Assembly: GCA_038887515.1 (NCBI GenBank)
Contig: JAWAKK010000001.1
Span: 512,001 to 576,000, forward strand
Source: Candidatus Nezhaarchaeales archaeon
GTDB lineage: Archaea > Thermoproteota > Methanomethylicia > Nezhaarchaeales > WYZ-LMO8
DNA length: 64,000 nt
Direction of reading: 5' to 3'
The translations under genes and the position numbers were made by a program. Under the pieces are notes generated by a model. That model did not search any database. It worked only from the letters and a program-made list of their open reading frames with translations, and was not told the DNA's origin. Of this stretch, positions 20,256 to 28,037 are shown one piece after another. Each line of letters starts with the position of its first letter. The first letter of the stretch is position 1.

Positions 20256-21500
20256 ATGAATAATAGAGTGTCCGTGGTAGCTGTTGGTTCTCCAGTTCAT
20301 CCACTACAACAACGAACGAAAGCCTTTCACATGCTTTTAAAATCTATTGAAGACCGTGGCTTAGACGTTGAAGTCGTAGCTGAACCTATATCTTCAATGG
20401 AAGAAGTTTGGTCCATTAGACATAAGATACTTAGCTTAGACAAGCCTCTAGTCATACTACACCTTACGGGCGGAACCTCTAAGCTAGCAGTCGAAGTAGC
20501 GAAGTGGTGTAATACTCCTATTACGCTCGTTACTCACGGTGAAGGCAATTCACTACCCTCAGGCCTAGAGACGCTTGTTAGGCTTAAGCGTCTGGGGCTT
20601 AGCGCCAAAATTGAGTTCCTCGAGCCTAGTAGTGGAACACTCAAAATCAAGGAGTTGGAAAGCGTCTTCGTAGGCTGCATGACTATTATAGGTGAAGTTT
20701 CTCCGAGGACATTCGATATTACTTGCCCAGCTACTTTAGCTCATAGACTTAAGGTTAAGATCATGCATTTAGCGGAGGAGGAGCTCGAAAAATATCTTGA
20801 AAGGCATGTGCGGGACGCTGAGCTTTCTCATAGTTTTCTCTCTGAGTTTAGGGGTGAAGTAAGGGTACCAGTACAAGAGCTTCAATTGAGCTTAGCTTTA
20901 AAGGAGGCTATCAAGGAGGCTGTCGAGAAAATGAAGTGCAACGTATTTACTGTTGACTGCTTCGAAATCCTTAAGAGGATTAGCGTAACTCCTTGCTTGG
21001 CCATATCTTTACTATCTGAAGAAGGTTTCTTAGGAATCTGCGAAGCTGATGTACAAGCAGCGGCATGCATGATTGCAATTAGAGAACTAGTTCACCCATT
21101 CATGGGCAACATAGTTGCGGTAAACGACGAATCGGTGACGCTAGCTCACTGTACTGCTGCTACGGTGTTAGCTTCAAACATTAGCAAGGTTAAACTGAAA
21201 AGCCACTTTGAGACCGACAGGAGCGTGGCTGTTGATGTTCCATTAAGGTTAGGCGAGGCTGTAATGATTAGTTGCGACCCTCAGCTCAGAGATGCGTACG
21301 TAGTTGAGTGCTACATTGATAGAAGTCAGCTCGAAAAAGAGAGTATGTGTAGAACTCAAGTATTGCTTAGACTTAAGTCTAAGCAATCAAAGGTCTTGGC
21401 TGAATGGCCTGGCGGTCACGCAGTCTTAGCAGTCCAAGTCGGTCTAACAGAAGTTAAAAACGCCCTATTGAAAAGAGGATTTACCGTCAAGGAACTTTAA
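20256..21500 (+). CDS. L-fucose/L-arabinose isomerase-like protein
   Basis: TVDCF, PCLA, CEAD, LAHCT, SHFET, CRTQ, GGH. Confidence 0.75.
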   Translation: MNNRVSVVAVGSPVHPLQQRTKAFHMLLKSIEDRGLDVEVVAEPISSMEEVWSIRHKILSLDKPLVILHLTGGTSKLAVEVAKWCNTPITLVTHGEGNSLPSGLETLVRLKRLGLSAKIEFLEPSSGTLKIKELESVFVGCMTIIGEVSPRTFDITCPATLAHRLKVKIMHLAEEELEKYLERHVRDAELSHSFLSEFRGEVRVPVQELQLSLALKEAIKEAVEKMKCNVFTVDCFEILKRISVTPCLAISLLSEEGFLGICEADVQAAACMIAIRELVHPFMGNIVAVNDESVTLAHCTAATVLASNISKVKLKSHFETDRSVAVDVPLRLGEAVMISCDPQLRDAYVVECYIDRSQLEKESMCRTQVLLRLKSKQSKVLAEWPGGHAVLAVQVGLTEVKNALLKRGFTVKEL

Positions 21501-21612
21501 CTCCTTAAACTGGTGAGGAACGTTTGCTTAAGAGTTAACCTTAAAATCTATGGAACCGAATCTTAGACGGTCGTTTAATGTTTATAAACCGAGACATAGC
21601 AACGTATATAGC

Positions 21613-21945
21613 ATGGCCACGTTGAACACGGGTCTAATAATAGCGGGCGCCTACGCCGACAAGGCTAGAAGGGTCCTAATGGCTCAAGTAAAGGGTCAAG
21701 TAAACCCGCAAGAGGCTGTAAGGGCTTCGGCTGAGCTAAACAAGGTACTATATGAAGTCATAGTCAACGGGATTAAGGCCGATAAAGGCGATGTAGTCAG
21801 GGTAGTCATAGACTACGAGCTCAATAATAACCAGATAAAGTGGAACTTTGAAACTTTAAGGATAGAGTTCTTTAAGAGAGTTCCCGATGAAGAAGTAAAA
21901 AGGAAGATTTGCGAGGCCTTAACTAAGGTCATGGGTGCACGGTAA
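21613..21945 (+). CDS. ThermoDBP-related (DUF2258) single-stranded nucleic-acid-binding protein
   Basis: LNTGLIIAGAYADKARR, AELN..LY, KGDVVRV, W..ETLRIE; start at ATG 21613 downstream of a TTTATAAA box. Confidence 0.8.
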   Translation: MATLNTGLIIAGAYADKARRVLMAQVKGQVNPQEAVRASAELNKVLYEVIVNGIKADKGDVVRVVIDYELNNNQIKWNFETLRIEFFKRVPDEEVKRKICEALTKVMGAR

Positions 21946-22071
21946 TTTAGCTTAAACTTAGAAAGCGACGACACTCCACCTTATATTTTTAAATTTTACG
22001 TAATCCTCTTCATGAAAGAAAGACAATAAAAGTGAATAAAAAAAGAATTCTAGTACCGATGTTTCTTTCTT

Positions 22072-22362
22072 CTACTTCTTCCTCTCTACCGTTATCTCTA
22101 TCGTGGAGACGTTTCTAGCTTGCTCGCCTTCGCCGACCTTCTCGGTACCTATTTTGACGTCCGTTATCTCTACCTGGTTTACTAGGAACCTGGTCTTCAC
22201 GATCTCGGCTGCATCGACGGCTTTCGATATAGCCCTCCCTCTAGCCTTTATTATTACTTTGTCCGCCCCCTGGTTGAACTGAATTACCGTTGCAAGGACG
22301 TAGTTCATGGTTGGTTTGTTTCCAACTAAAACAACATTCTCTCCTGTTTTTGGTTTGCTCAT
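22072..22362 (-). CDS. albA: DNA/RNA-binding protein Alba
   Basis: [30 protein letters not shown]; SD GGAGGT before ATG 22362. Confidence 0.96.
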
Positions 22363-22446
22363 GTCTTGTAACCTCCGCCTCGATGGTTTGTCGTAGTCTG
22401 ACACTTCTGTATCCGGTTAGTTTTAAACTCTTCGCTTAAACCTGGT

Positions 22447-23205
22447 TTATCGGAATAAGTCCTCCTGAGGAGGCATTATTAACTCTCTTACCGTTGCATT
22501 GTCGCTCTTCTCAAACTTCAATCCTCTTACGATAGCGGCTGGTACTCCTTCATTGGCCTGACCCATCACCAGCTCCGCTGCAGAAGCTATTTCATCCGCG
22601 ATAGCTGTTATCTTAGACTTAAGGACGTAACCGAAGAGGTCGCTCTCTCCTCTCCTATCTCTTAGAGGCCTTATTCCGGCTACACCTATTGCCACGTTTA
22701 TCTGACCCCTCCTAAAGGGTCTTCCATGCGTGTCGCTAATTATGACTGCTACGTCAACGCCCTTCAGTTTCTTAATGGTTTCTCTTATCTTAGCTGCTTC
22801 TTCATCTGGATCTGGCGGTAGAGTTACCGCGCTAAGCCCTCCATCGACATTAGAGACGTCGACGCCGGCGTTAGCGCACACGAAACCGTGTTTGGTCTCG
22901 CAAATAATGAGGTTACTTCCTAGCTTAACTATTTTGTTGGTTTCTCGGAGTATTACTTCAACGAGTTCTGGCGGTTTCCCTAAGGCTCTCGATAACGCTA
23001 TGGCTTTATCCGACGGCTGTACTTCACTTAGCCTATATATTAGACCCCTTGCCTTGGAAACTACTTTCTGAGAAATCACGAGGACATCGTTATCTATAAG
23101 CGGCGTCCCCTGTTTCTCAGCTGCCTCACATATGAGGATAGCTATGTCATCTCCAGGCTTTACCGGTACGGGGATGCCCCCTATTGGTATTATCTTTATC
23201 TCCAT
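22447..23205 (-). CDS. cofE: coenzyme F420-0:L-glutamate ligase
   Basis: SQKVVSKA.G, CANAGVD.SN, DTHGRPFRRGQ, ADEIASAAELVMGQ. Confidence 0.93.
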   Translation of the reverse strand: MEIKIIPIGGIPVPVKPGDDIAILICEAAEKQGTPLIDNDVLVISQKVVSKARGLIYRLSEVQPSDKAIALSRALGKPPELVEVILRETNKIVKLGSNLIICETKHGFVCANAGVDVSNVDGGLSAVTLPPDPDEEAAKIRETIKKLKGVDVAVIISDTHGRPFRRGQINVAIGVAGIRPLRDRRGESDLFGYVLKSKITAIADEIASAAELVMGQANEGVPAAIVRGLKFEKSDNATVRELIMPPQEDLFR

Positions 23206-23208
23206 GGT

Positions 23209-23607
23209 TTAACACGTAATTTCTTCATCGACCATGCTTTTAAGCCTTGCATAAAGTTTTGAATGCAGGCTTCCACAATAGCTGATATATAAGTTAAAGC
23301 ACTTAGCTTTAGCGGATGCCGTTAATATCTCGCATATCCTAAGATAAGCCTTCAAGCTGGCGAATTTGCTTGCAACAGACAATCTGGAGGCGTGAGAATA
23401 AAGATCTAGAATGACGTTGCTATCCCTAGAGATTTCTAGAGGTAGTGATACTACTTGCTCAAATTGCTTAAAAAGGTCTAAAACCTCTATCAGCTGGAAT
23501 GTCTCCAAAGGTTTATCGGACACTACGATCTTCGCAACGCCCGACACCTTCAATGACTTTAAGAGAGGTCTATTGCCATCGCCAACAACTAGGTAGGTCC
23601 TCCCCAT
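23209..23607 (-). CDS. small hypothetical protein, possibly a degenerate RecA/RAD55-fold
   Basis: SD GAGGTG before ATG 23607; TYLVVGDG (Walker-A-like position, no GKT), NVILD (Walker-B-like), C-terminal LKSMVDEEI. Confidence 0.55.
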   Translation of the reverse strand: MGRTYLVVGDGNRPLLKSLKVSGVAKIVVSDKPLETFQLIEVLDLFKQFEQVVSLPLEISRDSNVILDLYSHASRLSVASKFASLKAYLRICEILTASAKAKCFNLYISYCGSLHSKLYARLKSMVDEEITC

Positions 23608-23620
23608 ACATACACCTCGG

Positions 23621-23950
23621 TTAAAAGAACAAATGATAGAAAAGGCATGCACCTATATGGCTACAGGTATGTCTCCTAGACTTAAAGTACGGCTTGTAGG
23701 GTTGATTGCATGTACATATAAGCGACCCTCTACCCTCGTCGTACTTAACTACGTATAGATGCTCAGCGTCACCAAGCTTCTTCCTCCCCCTAACTATCCA
23801 CGTGTTTTTACGGCACTCGTAGACGTCGTACACCCTCGCAATACTTCTTTTAACCCACGACTTACCCTTTGCCTCAGTTAATTCAAGAAGCTTCTCTACG
23901 ATGCCGCAATCTAATGTTTTTGGGCTGGCATCAGGCTCTCTACGCCACAT
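23621..23950 (-). CDS. SWIM zinc-finger protein
   Basis: C-x-C-x14-C-x-H (CTCNQPYKPYFKSRRHTCSH) preceded by W.VRG...Y.V strands; overlaps radA-paralog stop. Confidence 0.82.
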   Translation of the reverse strand: MWRREPDASPKTLDCGIVEKLLELTEAKGKSWVKRSIARVYDVYECRKNTWIVRGRKKLGDAEHLYVVKYDEGRGSLICTCNQPYKPYFKSRRHTCSHIGACLFYHLFF

Positions 23951-24905
23951 CTTCAACCCCCCTCTCGGTTATCATATAACTTGCCGACGCACCATAGGGT
24001 AGCGTTGGGCTGTCAAGGACGGTCATCGTACCCTTTAGAAAGCCTCTTTCACTCTTGGTGCTTAAAAAGAACCTATGCGTTGTGGCGTGAGCAAGAGTTG
24101 TGCCTCCTATGGGTTTCAGCCTCTCATTGATATTTACGAAAGCCACTGGCACCTCCATTACCGGCGTCGTAACGACCACTATAACTTCGTATAGCCTGGC
24201 GATCCTTATAAGCCAGTCAAGTACGTAACCCAACCTGCTCTGCCTCAAGGCTAAAGACTCCCTTCCAGAGTATTCAGTTCTAAACCTTGACATTAGAGAG
24301 TCGACGATAACGAGCTTTATGCCCCCCTCTATTGTCCTCACGAGATCCGAGGTTACTACCTGAAGTAGGTGATCCGTATTTATGACGTCTATGACGTAGA
24401 TGTTGTTCAACGCGTGTTCGGGGTCAAGACCGAACCTCTCAGCTATAGACCTGACCCTGCTGGGGTCGAACGTCCCCTCAGTGTCCATGAAGTAGCATTT
24501 ACCTCCAATACCTCCCTTATTGGTCGATAGCTGAACTGTAATTGAGAGTTGCAGGCAAAGTTGGGTTTTTCCTGTTCCAGGCTGCCCGCATAACTCGTAG
24601 ATAGCCTTAGGCCTTAAGCCACCGTTAAGGAGGAGGTCTATGCTCTTGACTCCGATAGTCAAATGCGGTAGAGGTCTTTGAACTGAGTAGTCAGAAGCCT
24701 TAACAGCCTTTAAAGGCATGAAGATGCTCCTAGCGTGTGCAAGCGCCCTCCTTAGAGTCCTCTCATCGGCGTCAACTAAGCCTAATAGTTCATCGATATT
24801 AAACAACGATAGATGTTTGGCCGAGCATACACCAATACTTCGAAGCTTCTCTGCGGTCTTAGGTCCTATGCCCTCTAGATCCTCGAGCTTAACCTCTCCA
24901 CTCAA
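23940..24905 (-). CDS. divergent full-length RadA/Rad51 paralog
   Basis: N-terminal HhH (LEGIGPKTAEKL), GQPGTGKTQ, DTEGTF, VIVDS, FRTEYSGR.SL..RQ; TNQV replaced by TTPV. Confidence 0.88.
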   Translation of the reverse strand: MSGEVKLEDLEGIGPKTAEKLRSIGVCSAKHLSLFNIDELLGLVDADERTLRRALAHARSIFMPLKAVKASDYSVQRPLPHLTIGVKSIDLLLNGGLRPKAIYELCGQPGTGKTQLCLQLSITVQLSTNKGGIGGKCYFMDTEGTFDPSRVRSIAERFGLDPEHALNNIYVIDVINTDHLLQVVTSDLVRTIEGGIKLVIVDSLMSRFRTEYSGRESLALRQSRLGYVLDWLIRIARLYEVIVVVTTPVMEVPVAFVNINERLKPIGGTTLAHATTHRFFLSTKSERGFLKGTMTVLDSPTLPYGASASYMITERGVEDVA

Positions 24906-25105
24906 TTAGAGACACCTCTAAGATCACCTATTAGCAAGTTAATGGCTGTAAGAGCTCTAAGGGCAAGGGCTAGGCGTCGATCGACTTCTTCGATACTAAT
25001 TTCTGATATCATTGCTTGACAAGCTTCTAAGATTGCTTGGAACTCCAGCAGACTGTACTCTTCGATGAAGAGTACCCTTTCTTCTTTGGCCCTCTTAGCC
25101 CTCAA
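24902..25105 (-). CDS. small helical hypothetical protein
   Basis: 67-aa ORF overlapping the radA-paralog start by 4 bp. Confidence 0.5.
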   Translation of the reverse strand: MRAKRAKEERVLFIEEYSLLEFQAILEACQAMISEISIEEVDRRLALALRALTAINLLIGDLRGVSN

Positions 25106-25227
25106 CTTTAACTCTCTCTTTACCCTCTAGCCACTACAGGATTTGTACATCGTTAACAAAATCGTATAGAGGCCTTTACATGAGGCCCCTGCGATCCAAG
25201 TTAGAGAACACCCTTTCCTTTTCCTTT

Positions 25228-26511
25228 CTATTCTCGTATCAACCAGCCCTCCAATGCTTCAAGCTCCTCTAAAGCATTAAGGCCACGAACCGTAATTTTG
25301 AGCCAGTACTTACCGTCGGCTCCCACGACTTCGTTTGCAAGTCCATGGATTAATAGTGCGTTTACGAGCTTTGAAGCTTCCATCGATGATACGTCGAGCC
25401 TATGTATCGCATATGATATTACTGAATCCCTTGTTGACGCTCCATCTCTCAAGAAGTTCAAGACCTCGTACGCCATCTTAGCTTTATTGCCCAGCTTTGC
25501 TTGAAGCATTGATTTAGGGACCTCGACAGGGACCTTAAGTTCTTCAATCGCACTTATCTTTGCCGTCTCCTCAAGAGGAACCTCAACCACTCCACTTGAA
25601 TAAGCGAGACTATACGCGAACCTCTCTTTACTGTTGAGGAGCCTGAGATATCTTCGACCAACAACTGCACTAACATATCTTACATCTTCTGGTGTAATGG
25701 GTGAGCCCATGATTGCCATGCGGGCTCCCGCTCTCAATTCCAGCGGTATAGATGATGTGCCGTTCGCGCATGCGATAACTATCGAGGACTCGGCCCTCAT
25801 CTTGTTAAGAAGGTCTATAAGGTTCTTCCAAGCAGAGCCTATGAACTCTTTAAGTATGTCGACGTCGCATAAAGTCACGACCCCCTTAAAACCGCTTTTT
25901 AGTAAATGCATCAATATGGCCATGGATATAAGCGAAGCATAACTTGGCGGTAGCTCGTACATCGATATCAGCGCTTGAATATTCGTAAGCTCAAAATGGC
26001 TACTACATGCCGCTCCAAGCCTACCCCTCCCCATAGCCTCCACTATCTCTATGAGTTCAACGGCATCTCGATTCGTTAGTTCGTTTGATTCTAACTCCAG
26101 CGCGGATGTAATGTCTTCAATTGTCGGATCCTTTCCGGTCAGATACGTTCTAGTAAGCGCTCTTCTAAGAGACGAGGTTTGCGCGTTATTCAAGTTAAAG
26201 GCTCCCTTGAAGGCATCAGCAACGAAGTGTGCGTAGACTAGCTTGTCTCCGACTGGCTTAAATGGATTGAATGAGGCGTTTAGACCAAGACTTACATGCT
26301 TAAGCCATCTAGGACCCTCAGCTATGTAGGGCGATATTACCACCAAATTTGCTGAGTCCGCCAACTGTCCCAGCAAGTGGTATGTAGCGTTTAAGCTCCA
26401 CGCACCGCTGATTACTAGTGGGTGTGCGCTAAACAAGTTGACCCTTAAAGTACTCGTCAGCGCCTCCGCGTCATCCTCAATTATAAATCCAACATCAACC
26501 TCAAAGCTCAT
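25228..26511 (-). CDS. HerA/VirB4(CedB)-like ATPase with degenerate Walker motifs and C-terminal wHTH
   Basis: FNPF...AF.L..AQ..L..AL..Y....PTIEDI helical insert and later segments follow the HerA/VirB4 layout; Walker A position reads HPLVISGAWSLNAT; wHTH-like end (YWLKITVRG). Confidence 0.65.
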   Translation of the reverse strand: MSFEVDVGFIIEDDAEALTSTLRVNLFSAHPLVISGAWSLNATYHLLGQLADSANLVVISPYIAEGPRWLKHVSLGLNASFNPFKPVGDKLVYAHFVADAFKGAFNLNNAQTSSLRRALTRTYLTGKDPTIEDITSALELESNELTNRDAVELIEIVEAMGRGRLGAACSSHFELTNIQALISMYELPPSYASLISMAILMHLLKSGFKGVVTLCDVDILKEFIGSAWKNLIDLLNKMRAESSIVIACANGTSSIPLELRAGARMAIMGSPITPEDVRYVSAVVGRRYLRLLNSKERFAYSLAYSSGVVEVPLEETAKISAIEELKVPVEVPKSMLQAKLGNKAKMAYEVLNFLRDGASTRDSVISYAIHRLDVSSMEASKLVNALLIHGLANEVVGADGKYWLKITVRGLNALEELEALEGWLIRE

Positions 26512-27134
26512 GCCACAACCCCCTTGACGGCTCTAATAAGCTCGTCGAACTCCAGAACACAGATCTCGGACCTCGGCAACCTGGCCTTAACGGCTCCCAT
26601 GGTCGTCGTAAGGCCCTTAACGACTTCATCTACTACTTCCTTTGCAGTCTCCAAGAACTCCTTATCGAGTGGCTTGCGTACTTTAATCATAATTATAAAG
26701 CATGCATCCCCCGACGTTTTCTTAGAAACTATCAAGTTGCTTTCAAAGCCGGTCTTCGCCGCTACATCTATTGCACCTAGAAGCTCTACAACTCGGCCTC
26801 CCCCCAAGGACCTTACTTCCAAGCACCCTAAGCCTAGAGCTTCAGCACCATTTCTCACTACGACTGCTGGTCCTATGCCTTCAACTTCATATACTTGAAT
26901 ATCGCTTATTGTCGACGCCTTACATGCACGCTCTTTTCTCTTCGACCTCGGCCACTTGAGTCTCTTAACGAGTTTGTATAGGTACTTTCCAACTTTGTAG
27001 ATGATGTACGCCCCTATGGGTATCAGAAGCCAAGGAAAGAAGACGGATAACAACAATACTAGCAATAGTAATGTTGTCCTTAGGCTTATTATCCCTTTCC
27101 TAGAGGTTGAGGGTCTATTAACAGGTTCTATCAT
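26508..27134 (-). CDS. membrane-anchored hypothetical protein
   Basis: hydrophobic hairpin LLLLVLLLSVFFPWLLIPIGAYIIY followed by K/R patch; ATGA overlap with downstream gene. Confidence 0.7.
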   Translation of the reverse strand: MIEPVNRPSTSRKGIISLRTTLLLLVLLLSVFFPWLLIPIGAYIIYKVGKYLYKLVKRLKWPRSKRKERACKASTISDIQVYEVEGIGPAVVVRNGAEALGLGCLEVRSLGGGRVVELLGAIDVAAKTGFESNLIVSKKTSGDACFIIMIKVRKPLDKEFLETAKEVVDEVVKGLTTTMGAVKARLPRSEICVLEFDELIRAVKGVVA

Positions 27135-27222
27135 CGTCCCATCGCTTTTAAGTCAAGCTAAAGCACCCAATAAACAGTCGGACCATCAAAATGCGCTCGA
27201 GACATCTTAAAACAACATTGTA

Positions 27223-27236
27223 GGAGTGCGCACTCC
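27223..27236. promoter_or_regulatory. 14-bp perfect palindrome GGAGTGCGCACTCC in a divergent promoter region
   Basis: seen directly between udg and the membrane/HerA-like/radA-paralog cluster. Confidence 0.4.
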
Positions 27237-27289
27237 CTACCGGCTACACGGGCTTAATCAATCATTGTAAAGCTTAAAGGTGCCTTTCT

Positions 27290-27940
27290 ATGCTGAATTC
27301 TATGATTACTGTGAATAGCGAAAGGGCTAGACTACTTGAAGAAATAGCAAAAGAGATCGCTAATTGTAGGAAGTGTAGGCTGTGGTCTTCGAGGACTAAG
27401 CCTGTTCCAGGTCGAGGAAACATAAATGCAGACGTCATACTTATTGGGGAGGCGCCGGGGTACAACGAAGACCTAGAGGGAGAACCTTTCGTTGGAGCTG
27501 CAGGTAAGCTTTTAGACCAACTCTTAGACATAGCCCGTCTTAAACGGAAGGAAGTTTTCATAACTAATGTATTAAAATGTAGGCCGCCGAATAATAGGGA
27601 TCCATTACCAGACGAGATTGAGGCATGCGGTCAATACCTCGATAGGCAGGTAGCGGCCATAAGGCCCAAAATTGTCGTGTGTCTCGGTAGACATTCAACA
27701 AGCTACGTACTACTTAAAGGCGGTATAAAGGTTCACTTTGGAGGAAGTGCTGTAAGCATATCGGCTGTCAGAGGTCAACTATTTAAACTGAGCTTTGAAG
27801 GGCTTAACCTTCTAGTAATACCTACTTATCACCCGGCTGCGGGGCTATATAACCCTAAATTGAAGAAAGAATTGCTTAGTGACTTCGACTTTATAGGGAG
27901 GATCGTAGAGAAAGTTCGTGAAGGCTTGTTAACCATTTAG
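27290..27940 (+). CDS. udg: family 4 uracil-DNA glycosylase ([4Fe-4S])
   Basis: CRKCRL, GEAPG..ED..G.PFVG.AG, KCRPP.NR.P, TYHPAA. Confidence 0.95.
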   Translation: MLNSMITVNSERARLLEEIAKEIANCRKCRLWSSRTKPVPGRGNINADVILIGEAPGYNEDLEGEPFVGAAGKLLDQLLDIARLKRKEVFITNVLKCRPPNNRDPLPDEIEACGQYLDRQVAAIRPKIVVCLGRHSTSYVLLKGGIKVHFGGSAVSISAVRGQLFKLSFEGLNLLVIPTYHPAAGLYNPKLKKELLSDFDFIGRIVEKVREGLLTI

Positions 27941-27978
27941 AGCTAAGCTATTTAATTAAGTTAGGCGATAGAAGGTTT

Positions 27979-28037
27979 CGGGATGATGATGAAGGGATGA
28001 GGGGCTTTCTAGTGCTCGAAATCCGCGGGACTGACCG
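27979..28037 (+). ncRNA. C/D-box-like RNA or K-turn leader
   Basis: CGG-G-ATGATGA(C)...41 nt...CTGA(D)-CCG; internal C'/D' not canonical; ends 3 nt before ATG 28041. Confidence 0.45.

Follow-up and report, generated by a model that had tools for sequence, protein, structure and literature searches.

Rad51-paralog complexes, the Shu complex above all, are central to error-free damage tolerance and to cancer biology; how they work is still debated, and they are usually taken to have arisen within the eukaryotes. In archaea, RadB of the Euryarchaeota and aRadC/Ral of the Sulfolobales are core-only RecA-family proteins thought to modulate recombination beside RadA. The Shu complex (Shu2-Shu1-Psy3-Csm2 in yeast; SWS1-SWSAP1, with SPIDR, in humans) is described as a SWIM protein, recognisable by the pattern CXC...Xn...CXHXXA, together with Rad51 paralogs (PMC6316741, PMC5727457), and Shu2 orthologs are said there to be conserved ‘from archaea to humans’ (PMC5727457). 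Here we describe a six-gene operon from Candidatus Nezhaarchaeales archaeon (assembly GCA_038887515.1), a hot-spring archaeon of the class Methanomethylicia, phylum Thermoproteota, with a genome of 1.29 Mb that is 94% complete. The operon lies in a stretch of 64,000 nucleotides (nt) of contig JAWAKK010000001.1 (positions 512,001-576,000, forward strand), which was analysed as a whole and is called the window below, and it encodes a divergent RadA paralog, a stand-alone SWIM protein and a small protein predicted to have a RecA-like fold. The best reading of the operon, which we hold to be about as probable as its negation, is that of a Shu-like accessory recombination-mediator module of Thermoproteota. 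A first-pass annotation of this DNA had proposed an archaeal counterpart of the Shu complex: the likeness stands at the level of parts. The data give no support for common descent, since the paralog is an offshoot specific to the Thermoproteota and the SWIM protein shows no particular affinity to Shu2, its model lying nearer to ZSWIM8. A literature search on archaeal SWIM or Shu2 proteins with RadA paralogs did not find a description of such an operon; an earlier mention of something Shu2-like in archaea is possible.

The first-pass annotation had recognised a cluster of four genes at this place. The four open reading frames (ORFs) are present as it described them; the operon, however, comprises six genes, with two conserved ones further upstream, and the ORF of 67 amino acids (aa) that it counted as a gene is a remnant of a longer one. 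All six are on the minus strand, in the following order of transcription (coordinates are those of the window; the basis of each assignment, including profile hidden Markov models, HMMs, is given in brackets):

26508..27134, minus strand: p208, the first gene of the operon, 208 aa, a single hydrophobic segment of membrane type at the N-terminus, and a soluble domain (ORF, HMM, BLASTP)
25228..26511, minus strand: p427, 427 aa, a P-loop-less HerA/FtsK (DUF87)-like predicted fold with a C-terminal winged-helix-like tail (ESM Atlas model)
24902..25252, minus strand: a small conserved gene, about 112 aa in relatives, broken in the window (ORFs of relatives, DNA alignment)
24902..25105, minus strand: the 67-aa ORF, the C-terminal remnant of that small gene (ORF list)
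23940..24905, minus strand: the RadA paralog, 321 aa, a helix-hairpin-helix (HhH) N-terminal domain and a RecA core (Pfam, NCBIfam, tree)
23621..23956, minus strand: the stand-alone SWIM protein, 111 aa, CxC-x14-CxHxxA (motif, AlphaFold 2 model)
23209..23607, minus strand: the 132-aa protein, a predicted RecA/RadB-like fold with a degenerate P-loop (alignment, structure matches)

The ends of these ORFs overlap or abut, the SWIM gene beginning 17 nt before the RadA paralog gene ends. For the last gene the longest ORF runs from 23209 to 23652 (147 aa), but the ATG at 23607 is the true start, in agreement with all five close relatives and with the database entries. The guanine-plus-cytosine (GC) content of the operon region, 0.45-0.47, is that of the remaining window, and a contig from sequencing run X1, possibly the source sample, is identical to the window over positions 22000-28000. 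Two metatranscriptome runs of the same study, sampled at about 3% of their reads, gave 0 reads over these positions, a sampling too thin to speak for or against transcription.

The RadA paralog matches PF08423 (Rad51) with 207.7 bits and HHH_5 with 25.3 bits (E 2.2e-5; cut-off 27), and it falls under the cut-offs of both RadA equivalog models (NF003301, 257.7 against 259 bits; TIGR02236, 240.9 against 361.15 bits). Its Walker A (GQPGTGKTQ), the MDTEGTF segment with the catalytic Glu and Walker B (LVIVDS) are all kept, Ala stands where the Phe of the polymerisation motif is expected, and TTPV and GGT are found in place of TNQV and GGH; the HhH domain, Walker A and B, the missing Phe and the two altered elements had been noted in the first-pass annotation. 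That annotation had also proposed to look for a separate canonical radA elsewhere, and two full-length ones were found among the four further Rad51-family matches in the genome, scoring 336 and 309 bits against 208 for the paralog and both carrying the polymerisation Phe, TNQV and GG[NH]; the other two matches, 247 aa and 233 aa long, are paralogs with the core only.

Relationships within the family were reconstructed with IQ-TREE (LG+G4) from 41 RadA-family proteins of 11 genomes, leaving out a 123-aa fragment and the 207-aa downstream protein of genome G188. All nine rows flagged as SWIM-adjacent fell inside a single clade of 15 rows (support 99/98), which is nested among canonical Thermoproteota RadA, and within the class the paralogs grouped by host lineage. 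Four of the six remaining rows of the clade lie 1.7-2.4 kb from further SWIM copies (G355_L101, G197_L110, G203_L104, G203_L112), one (G203_L107) has no listed SWIM match nearby and the genome of the last (G016_L102) yielded no SWIM gene. Motifs were compared in an alignment of 42 rows, in which 22 rows count as clade members (15 by the tree and 7 by SWIM adjacency). The polymerisation Phe is present in 16/16 canonical RadA proteins and in none of the 22 clade members, which have Ala, Val, Ile, Thr, Ser or Pro instead; every clade member keeps GK[TS] in Walker A, the Glu of DTE (DAE in L019) and the Asp of Walker B. TTPV and GGT occur together in only three of them (the window and its relatives L018 and L019), while the other 19 have TNQV or a near variant (TNHV, TNEV, TNQI, TDQV) and GG[HNM]; both changes are a trait of the Nezhaarchaeales and not of the paralog clade. 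In RadA and Rad51 structures the Gln of TNQV and the His of GGH link ATP with loop L2 and with the adjacent subunit, and the loss of both elements would fit a non-filament role for the paralog of the window.

Three further features of the RadA family were observed on the way. The two canonical radA genes of the host genome, at C1:387217-387936 (L001) and C4:16188-16907 (L002), sit in two separate clades, the L002 type occurring in all five class genomes sampled and the L001 type in some only. About 1.4 kb from the second of them lies the gene for the 233-aa protein, which is KaiC/RadB-like and has an intact Walker A, GEPGSGKTT (C4:18271-18855; L005 1393-2094, minus strand). Full-length RadA paralogs also form a fourth clade, seen in L083 (genome G010, 310 aa) and L086 (genome G014, 306 aa), with no polymerisation Phe, an altered GGH and no adjoining SWIM gene.

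The second core protein is a genuine SWIM module, as the first reading of its CxC-x14-CxH pattern had it. Its ligands, read from the sequence, are C81-x-C83-x14-C98-x-H100-x-x-A103; across 11 family members the Cys and His residues are invariant and the last position is Ala in nine and Ser in two. The window protein has no Pfam match to PF04434, and that model reaches E ≤ 1 in 2/11 family members (best 0.16), the longer relatives in L060 and L061 scoring 18.5 and 16.9 bits against a cut-off of 19.6. The AlphaFold 2 (AF2) model, with a predicted local distance difference test (pLDDT) score of 81.8, was compared by VIA-align with 48,161 solved chains in an exhaustive search. Its best match, and the only chain at Z ≥ 5, was ZSWIM8 (residues 108-210; Z 6.9, root-mean-square deviation (rmsd) 4.6, 90 residues aligned); Shu2, from the Shu1:Shu2 complex (6dex_B), ranked fourth (Z 3.1, rmsd 4.4, 84 aligned, 18% identity). 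Foldseek of the model against the PDB returned nothing at E ≤ 0.001, and the SWIM profile against PDB sequences nothing at E ≤ 10. The protein thus resembles ZSWIM8 and PF04434 in its zinc-ligand pattern and, by the model, in fold, and differs from them in standing alone and in lying below the Pfam cut-off; no evidence favours Shu2/SWS1 over other SWIM proteins as its closer kin. The family comprises 29 database clusters, every one labelled ‘hypothetical’ and none with a Pfam domain.

Longer forms of the SWIM protein were also encountered. In two loci of family f19 (L060 6891-7872 and L062 5828-6809) it has 192 aa, with an extra beta-rich C-terminal part; the next gene encodes a conserved 137-aa protein, and a RadA paralog of the clade comes roughly 1 kb further along, with p427 and p208 not nearby. 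In L059 (6705-7502, genome G131) it reaches 265 aa through fusion with a domain of some 150 aa at its C-terminus; this domain replaces the separate downstream gene.

For the 132-aa protein, the first-pass description of Walker-like positions without GKT is borne out by alignment, which places G-D-G-N-R-P at the P-loop, with no GK[ST], and shows a Walker-B-like VILDLY. The family is confined to the Nezhaarchaeales and fast-evolving (25 database clusters): its profile found only its own two clusters among 1.84 billion representative proteins, it belongs to no Pfam or NCBIfam family, and against the PDB it gave a single match, at E 6.2. The AF2 model is an alpha/beta sandwich (pLDDT 69.9), for which the VIA-align search ranked the following chains:

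Rank 1: Shu1 (6dex_A), Z 8.3, rmsd 3.6, 106/130 residues aligned, the only chain at Z ≥ 8 of the 48,161
Rank 2: Psy3-Csm2 (3vu9_B), Z 7.0
Rank 3: DMC1, Z 6.9
Rank 9: 5xyn_C, Z 6.7
Rank 12: RadB, Z 6.6

Among the best 50 rows, 10 are of the RecA family, and BCDX2, XRCC3-RAD51C, Rad51, RecA and another paralog complex also appear. An ESM Atlas model of the same protein (pLDDT 0.59) gave template modelling (TM) scores, by query, of 0.76-0.81 to its nearest clusters, those of the DUF835, Rad51, DUF7090/DUF7504 (FlaH- and KaiC-like) and RadB families. In other lineages the genes at the same position are derived from a RadA core: six of these downstream proteins, aligned by hhalign to the RadA paralog alignment, matched it from Walker A to beyond Walker B (probability 95.8%, E 8.1e-9, 158 columns). 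The protein in L063 has an intact Walker A (GEAGAGKTT) and weak matches to AAA_25, KaiC and RecA, and in others the P-loop decays progressively. The RecA fold that the first-pass annotation had expected is thus the predicted one, with Shu1 and Psy3-Csm2 as the best solved matches, and on the two models and the gene position together we consider a RecA-like fold of the 132-aa protein likely.

The SWIM protein was found in 22 of 40 relatives and, by profile, in 75 of 401 Thermoproteota genomes (G000 included), that is, in 67 of the 334 high-quality genomes and 32 of the 161 genera. A RadA-family gene adjoins it in 11/11 loci of a first set and in 18/23 loci of a wider set spanning several Thermoproteota families and orders, so that the synteny which the first-pass annotation had proposed to check is conserved. 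It also does so in 31 of 33 loci of a third set, in which several places are counted twice, two are the first 35 residues at a locus edge and two are weak partial matches. The order small gene, RadA paralog, SWIM gene, small downstream gene is conserved. Counting the 23 loci of the wider set and the window, the full order p208, p427, small gene, RadA paralog, SWIM was detected in 10 of 24 places and part of it in four more (L021, L054, L055, L059). Full-length p427 (E ≤ 1e-90) is present in 23/401 Thermoproteota genomes, all of them SWIM-positive except one that is 69% complete.

In some lineages the SWIM gene is multicopy, with nine matches in G234, some of them with stop codons inside, six in G057 and four each in G203 and G267. 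G203 also has two near-identical copies of the RadA paralog (end branches 0.064 and 0.066). Such copy numbers hint that duplication or mobile elements have spread the genes there.

Upstream of the core, p208 belongs to no Pfam or NCBIfam family; it is homologous to the gene at the same position in the Methanomethylicia locus L021 (BLASTP E 5e-05), and its HMM matched 11 ORFs at this position. p427, which has no Pfam match and is likewise homologous to the L021 gene in the same place (E 1e-14), gave an ESM Atlas model with TM scores of 0.66-0.76 by query to DUF87/HerA clusters. In the type of its predicted fold and in having the gene of a membrane-anchored partner adjacent, it resembles the HerA/FtsK/VirB4 ATPases, including, by analogy, CedB/CedD as they have been described; it differs from them in having no Walker A (GK[ST] is absent from 13/13 aligned orthologues) and in its added, conserved winged-helix-like tail. 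The third upstream gene has 107-161 aa in relatives and no Pfam family, and its HMM matched 13 ORFs at this position. In the window it has CTG (25246-25244) where relatives have a GTG start, an in-frame TAG (25129-25127) where they have TGG and, in the DNA alignment, a 6-nt insertion relative to them; the 67-aa ORF is no separate gene but the C-terminal part of the ~112-aa gene, which is broken in this genome.

On the Shu-like reading, the core of the module would be three co-translated proteins: a RadA paralog that probably binds ATP and is without the Phe that canonical RadA and Rad51 insert into the next subunit to polymerise, the SWIM protein, and a small RecA-fold protein whose nucleotide site no longer works. 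We infer that they would form a hetero-oligomer in which the SWIM protein bridges RecA-fold subunits, by analogy with Shu2/SWS1, and that this complex, forming no strand-exchange filament itself, would assist the two canonical RadA proteins where DNA is damaged or replication has stalled, by nucleating, capping or stabilising the filaments that they form. The upstream p208, p427 and ~112-aa proteins, encoded in the same unit, would probably tether or recruit the complex to DNA or membrane. A complex, a mediator role and an inability to polymerise are thus what the reading proposes, to account for the gene content and order, the motif states, the paralog clade, the separate radA genes and the predicted folds.

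The comparison with the Shu complex sets an archaeal set known here from genes and predicted folds beside the eukaryotic one. As Shu is described, a CxC...CxHxxA SWIM protein goes with RecA-fold paralogs, and in the archaeon such a protein is co-encoded with the RadA paralog; the 132-aa protein, given its predicted fold, would answer to a small paralog of Shu without a working nucleotide site, and the best solved matches of its model are themselves Shu subunits. In both a separate canonical recombinase is present, for the archaeon two radA products that the complex would serve. The operon differs in having as one partner a RadA of full length that carries an HhH domain and seems ATP-competent. 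Having arisen inside Thermoproteota RadA, that paralog is not orthologous to Csm2, Psy3 or SWSAP1. The SWIM model, too, is closer to ZSWIM8 than to Shu2, and the membrane protein, the dead HerA-like protein and the ~112-aa protein have no Shu counterpart. Compared with RadB and aRadC, the paralog is likewise an extra RecA-family protein, in a genome that also has the two short core-only paralogs; unlike them it keeps the HhH domain, forms a clade of its own and is tied to SWIM and degenerate RecA-like genes. The proteins of a thermophile are likely to be stable and easily purified, and with the RadA paralog, the SWIM protein and the putatively dead RecA-fold protein one would have a simple means to study the action of a SWIM adaptor and of non-polymerising RecA-fold subunits on recombinase filaments. 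The operon also flags some 30 protein clusters so far annotated only as ‘hypothetical’.

Several observations weigh against the Shu-like reading. Confidence in the 132-aa model is modest, the other four AF2 models have pLDDT 37-52 (at most 52.2) and the Atlas model only 0.59. Best VIA-align scores of Z 7-8 are typical of models without a true match, and many unrelated Rossmann-like folds lie at Z 6-7 for this protein; Foldseek of the model against the PDB found nothing at E ≤ 0.001, the best hit being RAD51 with a TM score by query (TMq) of 0.56. By hhalign the 132-aa family matches the RadA paralog alignment with a probability of 0.3% and the downstream genes of other lineages with 0.9% and 0.8%, and BLASTP against the L066 protein reached only E 0.017-0.058. 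The SWIM model is nearer to ZSWIM8 than to Shu2 by Z 6.9 to 3.1, Val or Ile at the Phe position of some paralogs might still permit self-association, the ~112-aa gene is broken in this very genome, and the Shu analogy leaves the membrane and HerA-like parts unexplained. In 5/23 loci (L056, L061, L064, L065, L067) the SWIM gene has no RadA gene within the 10-13.5 kb fetched. The profile search found SWIM in 0/32 genomes of family f5, of which G016 keeps p427-like, small, clade RadA and 168-aa downstream genes in a row; f5 thus keeps the module without a detectable SWIM gene, and SWIM is therefore dispensable in one lineage.

In a possible, if rather unlikely, alternative the six genes encode a membrane-associated DNA-handling machine, with the paralog as its working recombinase and the SWIM and RecA-like proteins as cofactors; p208 and p427 would dock DNA, such as that entering the cell or being exchanged, in analogy to CedB/CedD of the Ced import system in Sulfolobales. 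This overlaps with the Shu-like reading and differs from it in giving the paralog a catalytic and not a mediator role. It draws on the conservation of p208 and p427 with the core, on the SWIM gene in 22 of the 23 genomes with full-length p427, on the HerA/DUF87/TraG-like fold predicted for p427 and on a paralog that keeps HhH, Walker A and B and the Glu and, outside the Nezhaarchaeales, also TN[QHE]V and GG[HN]; CedD and CedB are described as HerA/VirB4-type proteins required for DNA import (PMC11868833). However, p427 cannot be a motor, because none of the 13 orthologues has a Walker A, and a working recombinase sits poorly with the absence of the Phe from all 22 clade members and with the loss of the Gln and His elements (TTPV, GGT) in the Nezhaarchaeales; moreover, the Thermoproteaceae-type loci L060 and L062 have the SWIM-RadA pair with p427 and p208 not nearby. 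A different departure from the Shu-like reading keeps the mediator and adds ancestry: the SWIM protein and its dead RecA-fold neighbour would be true homologues of Shu2/SWS1 and of Shu1/SWSAP1-type proteins, the mediator would predate the eukaryotes, and the operon would be its prokaryotic form, with a membrane- or DNA-tethering part that eukaryotes lost. We think this doubtful; the archaeal set would make the question of analogy or ancestry testable.

It strikes us as very improbable that mobile elements carry the SWIM-RadA pair as cargo, or that it serves in anti-virus defence, rather than being a chromosomal repair factor. HerA-like proteins do occur in defence systems, and the several SWIM copies in G234, G057, G203 and G267, with stop codons in some, and the near-identical paralog copies in G203 point the same way; against this, the Nezhaarchaeales operon is single-copy between the same housekeeping flanks in the window, L018 and L019 (cofE and a uracil-DNA glycosylase, UDG), its GC content is uniform with the window, the paralog tree follows host lineage within the class, and PADLOC gave no match for five of the six operon proteins and only weak, P-loop-level matches for the RadA paralog. 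Least credible of all is chance neighbourhood, with the paralog a third, redundant RadA and the small proteins unrelated to it: the 132-aa protein does lack detectable sequence relatives outside its order, but gene order is conserved across several families and orders, the reading frames overlap, and the paralogs form a dedicated clade that has lost the Phe throughout. The Shu-like mediator module remains the reading that we prefer.

The operon of the window is flanked by these two genes:

22447-23205: cofE, next after the gene for the 132-aa protein
27290-27940, plus strand: family-4 UDG, divergent from p208 (Pfam, NCBIfam)

The first-pass annotation had linked the operon to abasic sites through the divergent glycosylase. 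A family-4 UDG is indeed present and divergent; as a conserved association the link was rejected, since UDG and cofE are neighbours of the operon in only 3/24 places—the window, L018 and L019, the Nezhaarchaeales loci with enough flank—and in 0/21 other loci, so that the neighbour is not conserved outside the order. Beyond cofE, the window has a 414-aa ORF (20256-21500, plus strand) with no family above threshold and a faint AraA_central hit as its sole match; beside it are genes for a ThermoDBP-related protein (21550-21945) and for Alba (22072-22404).

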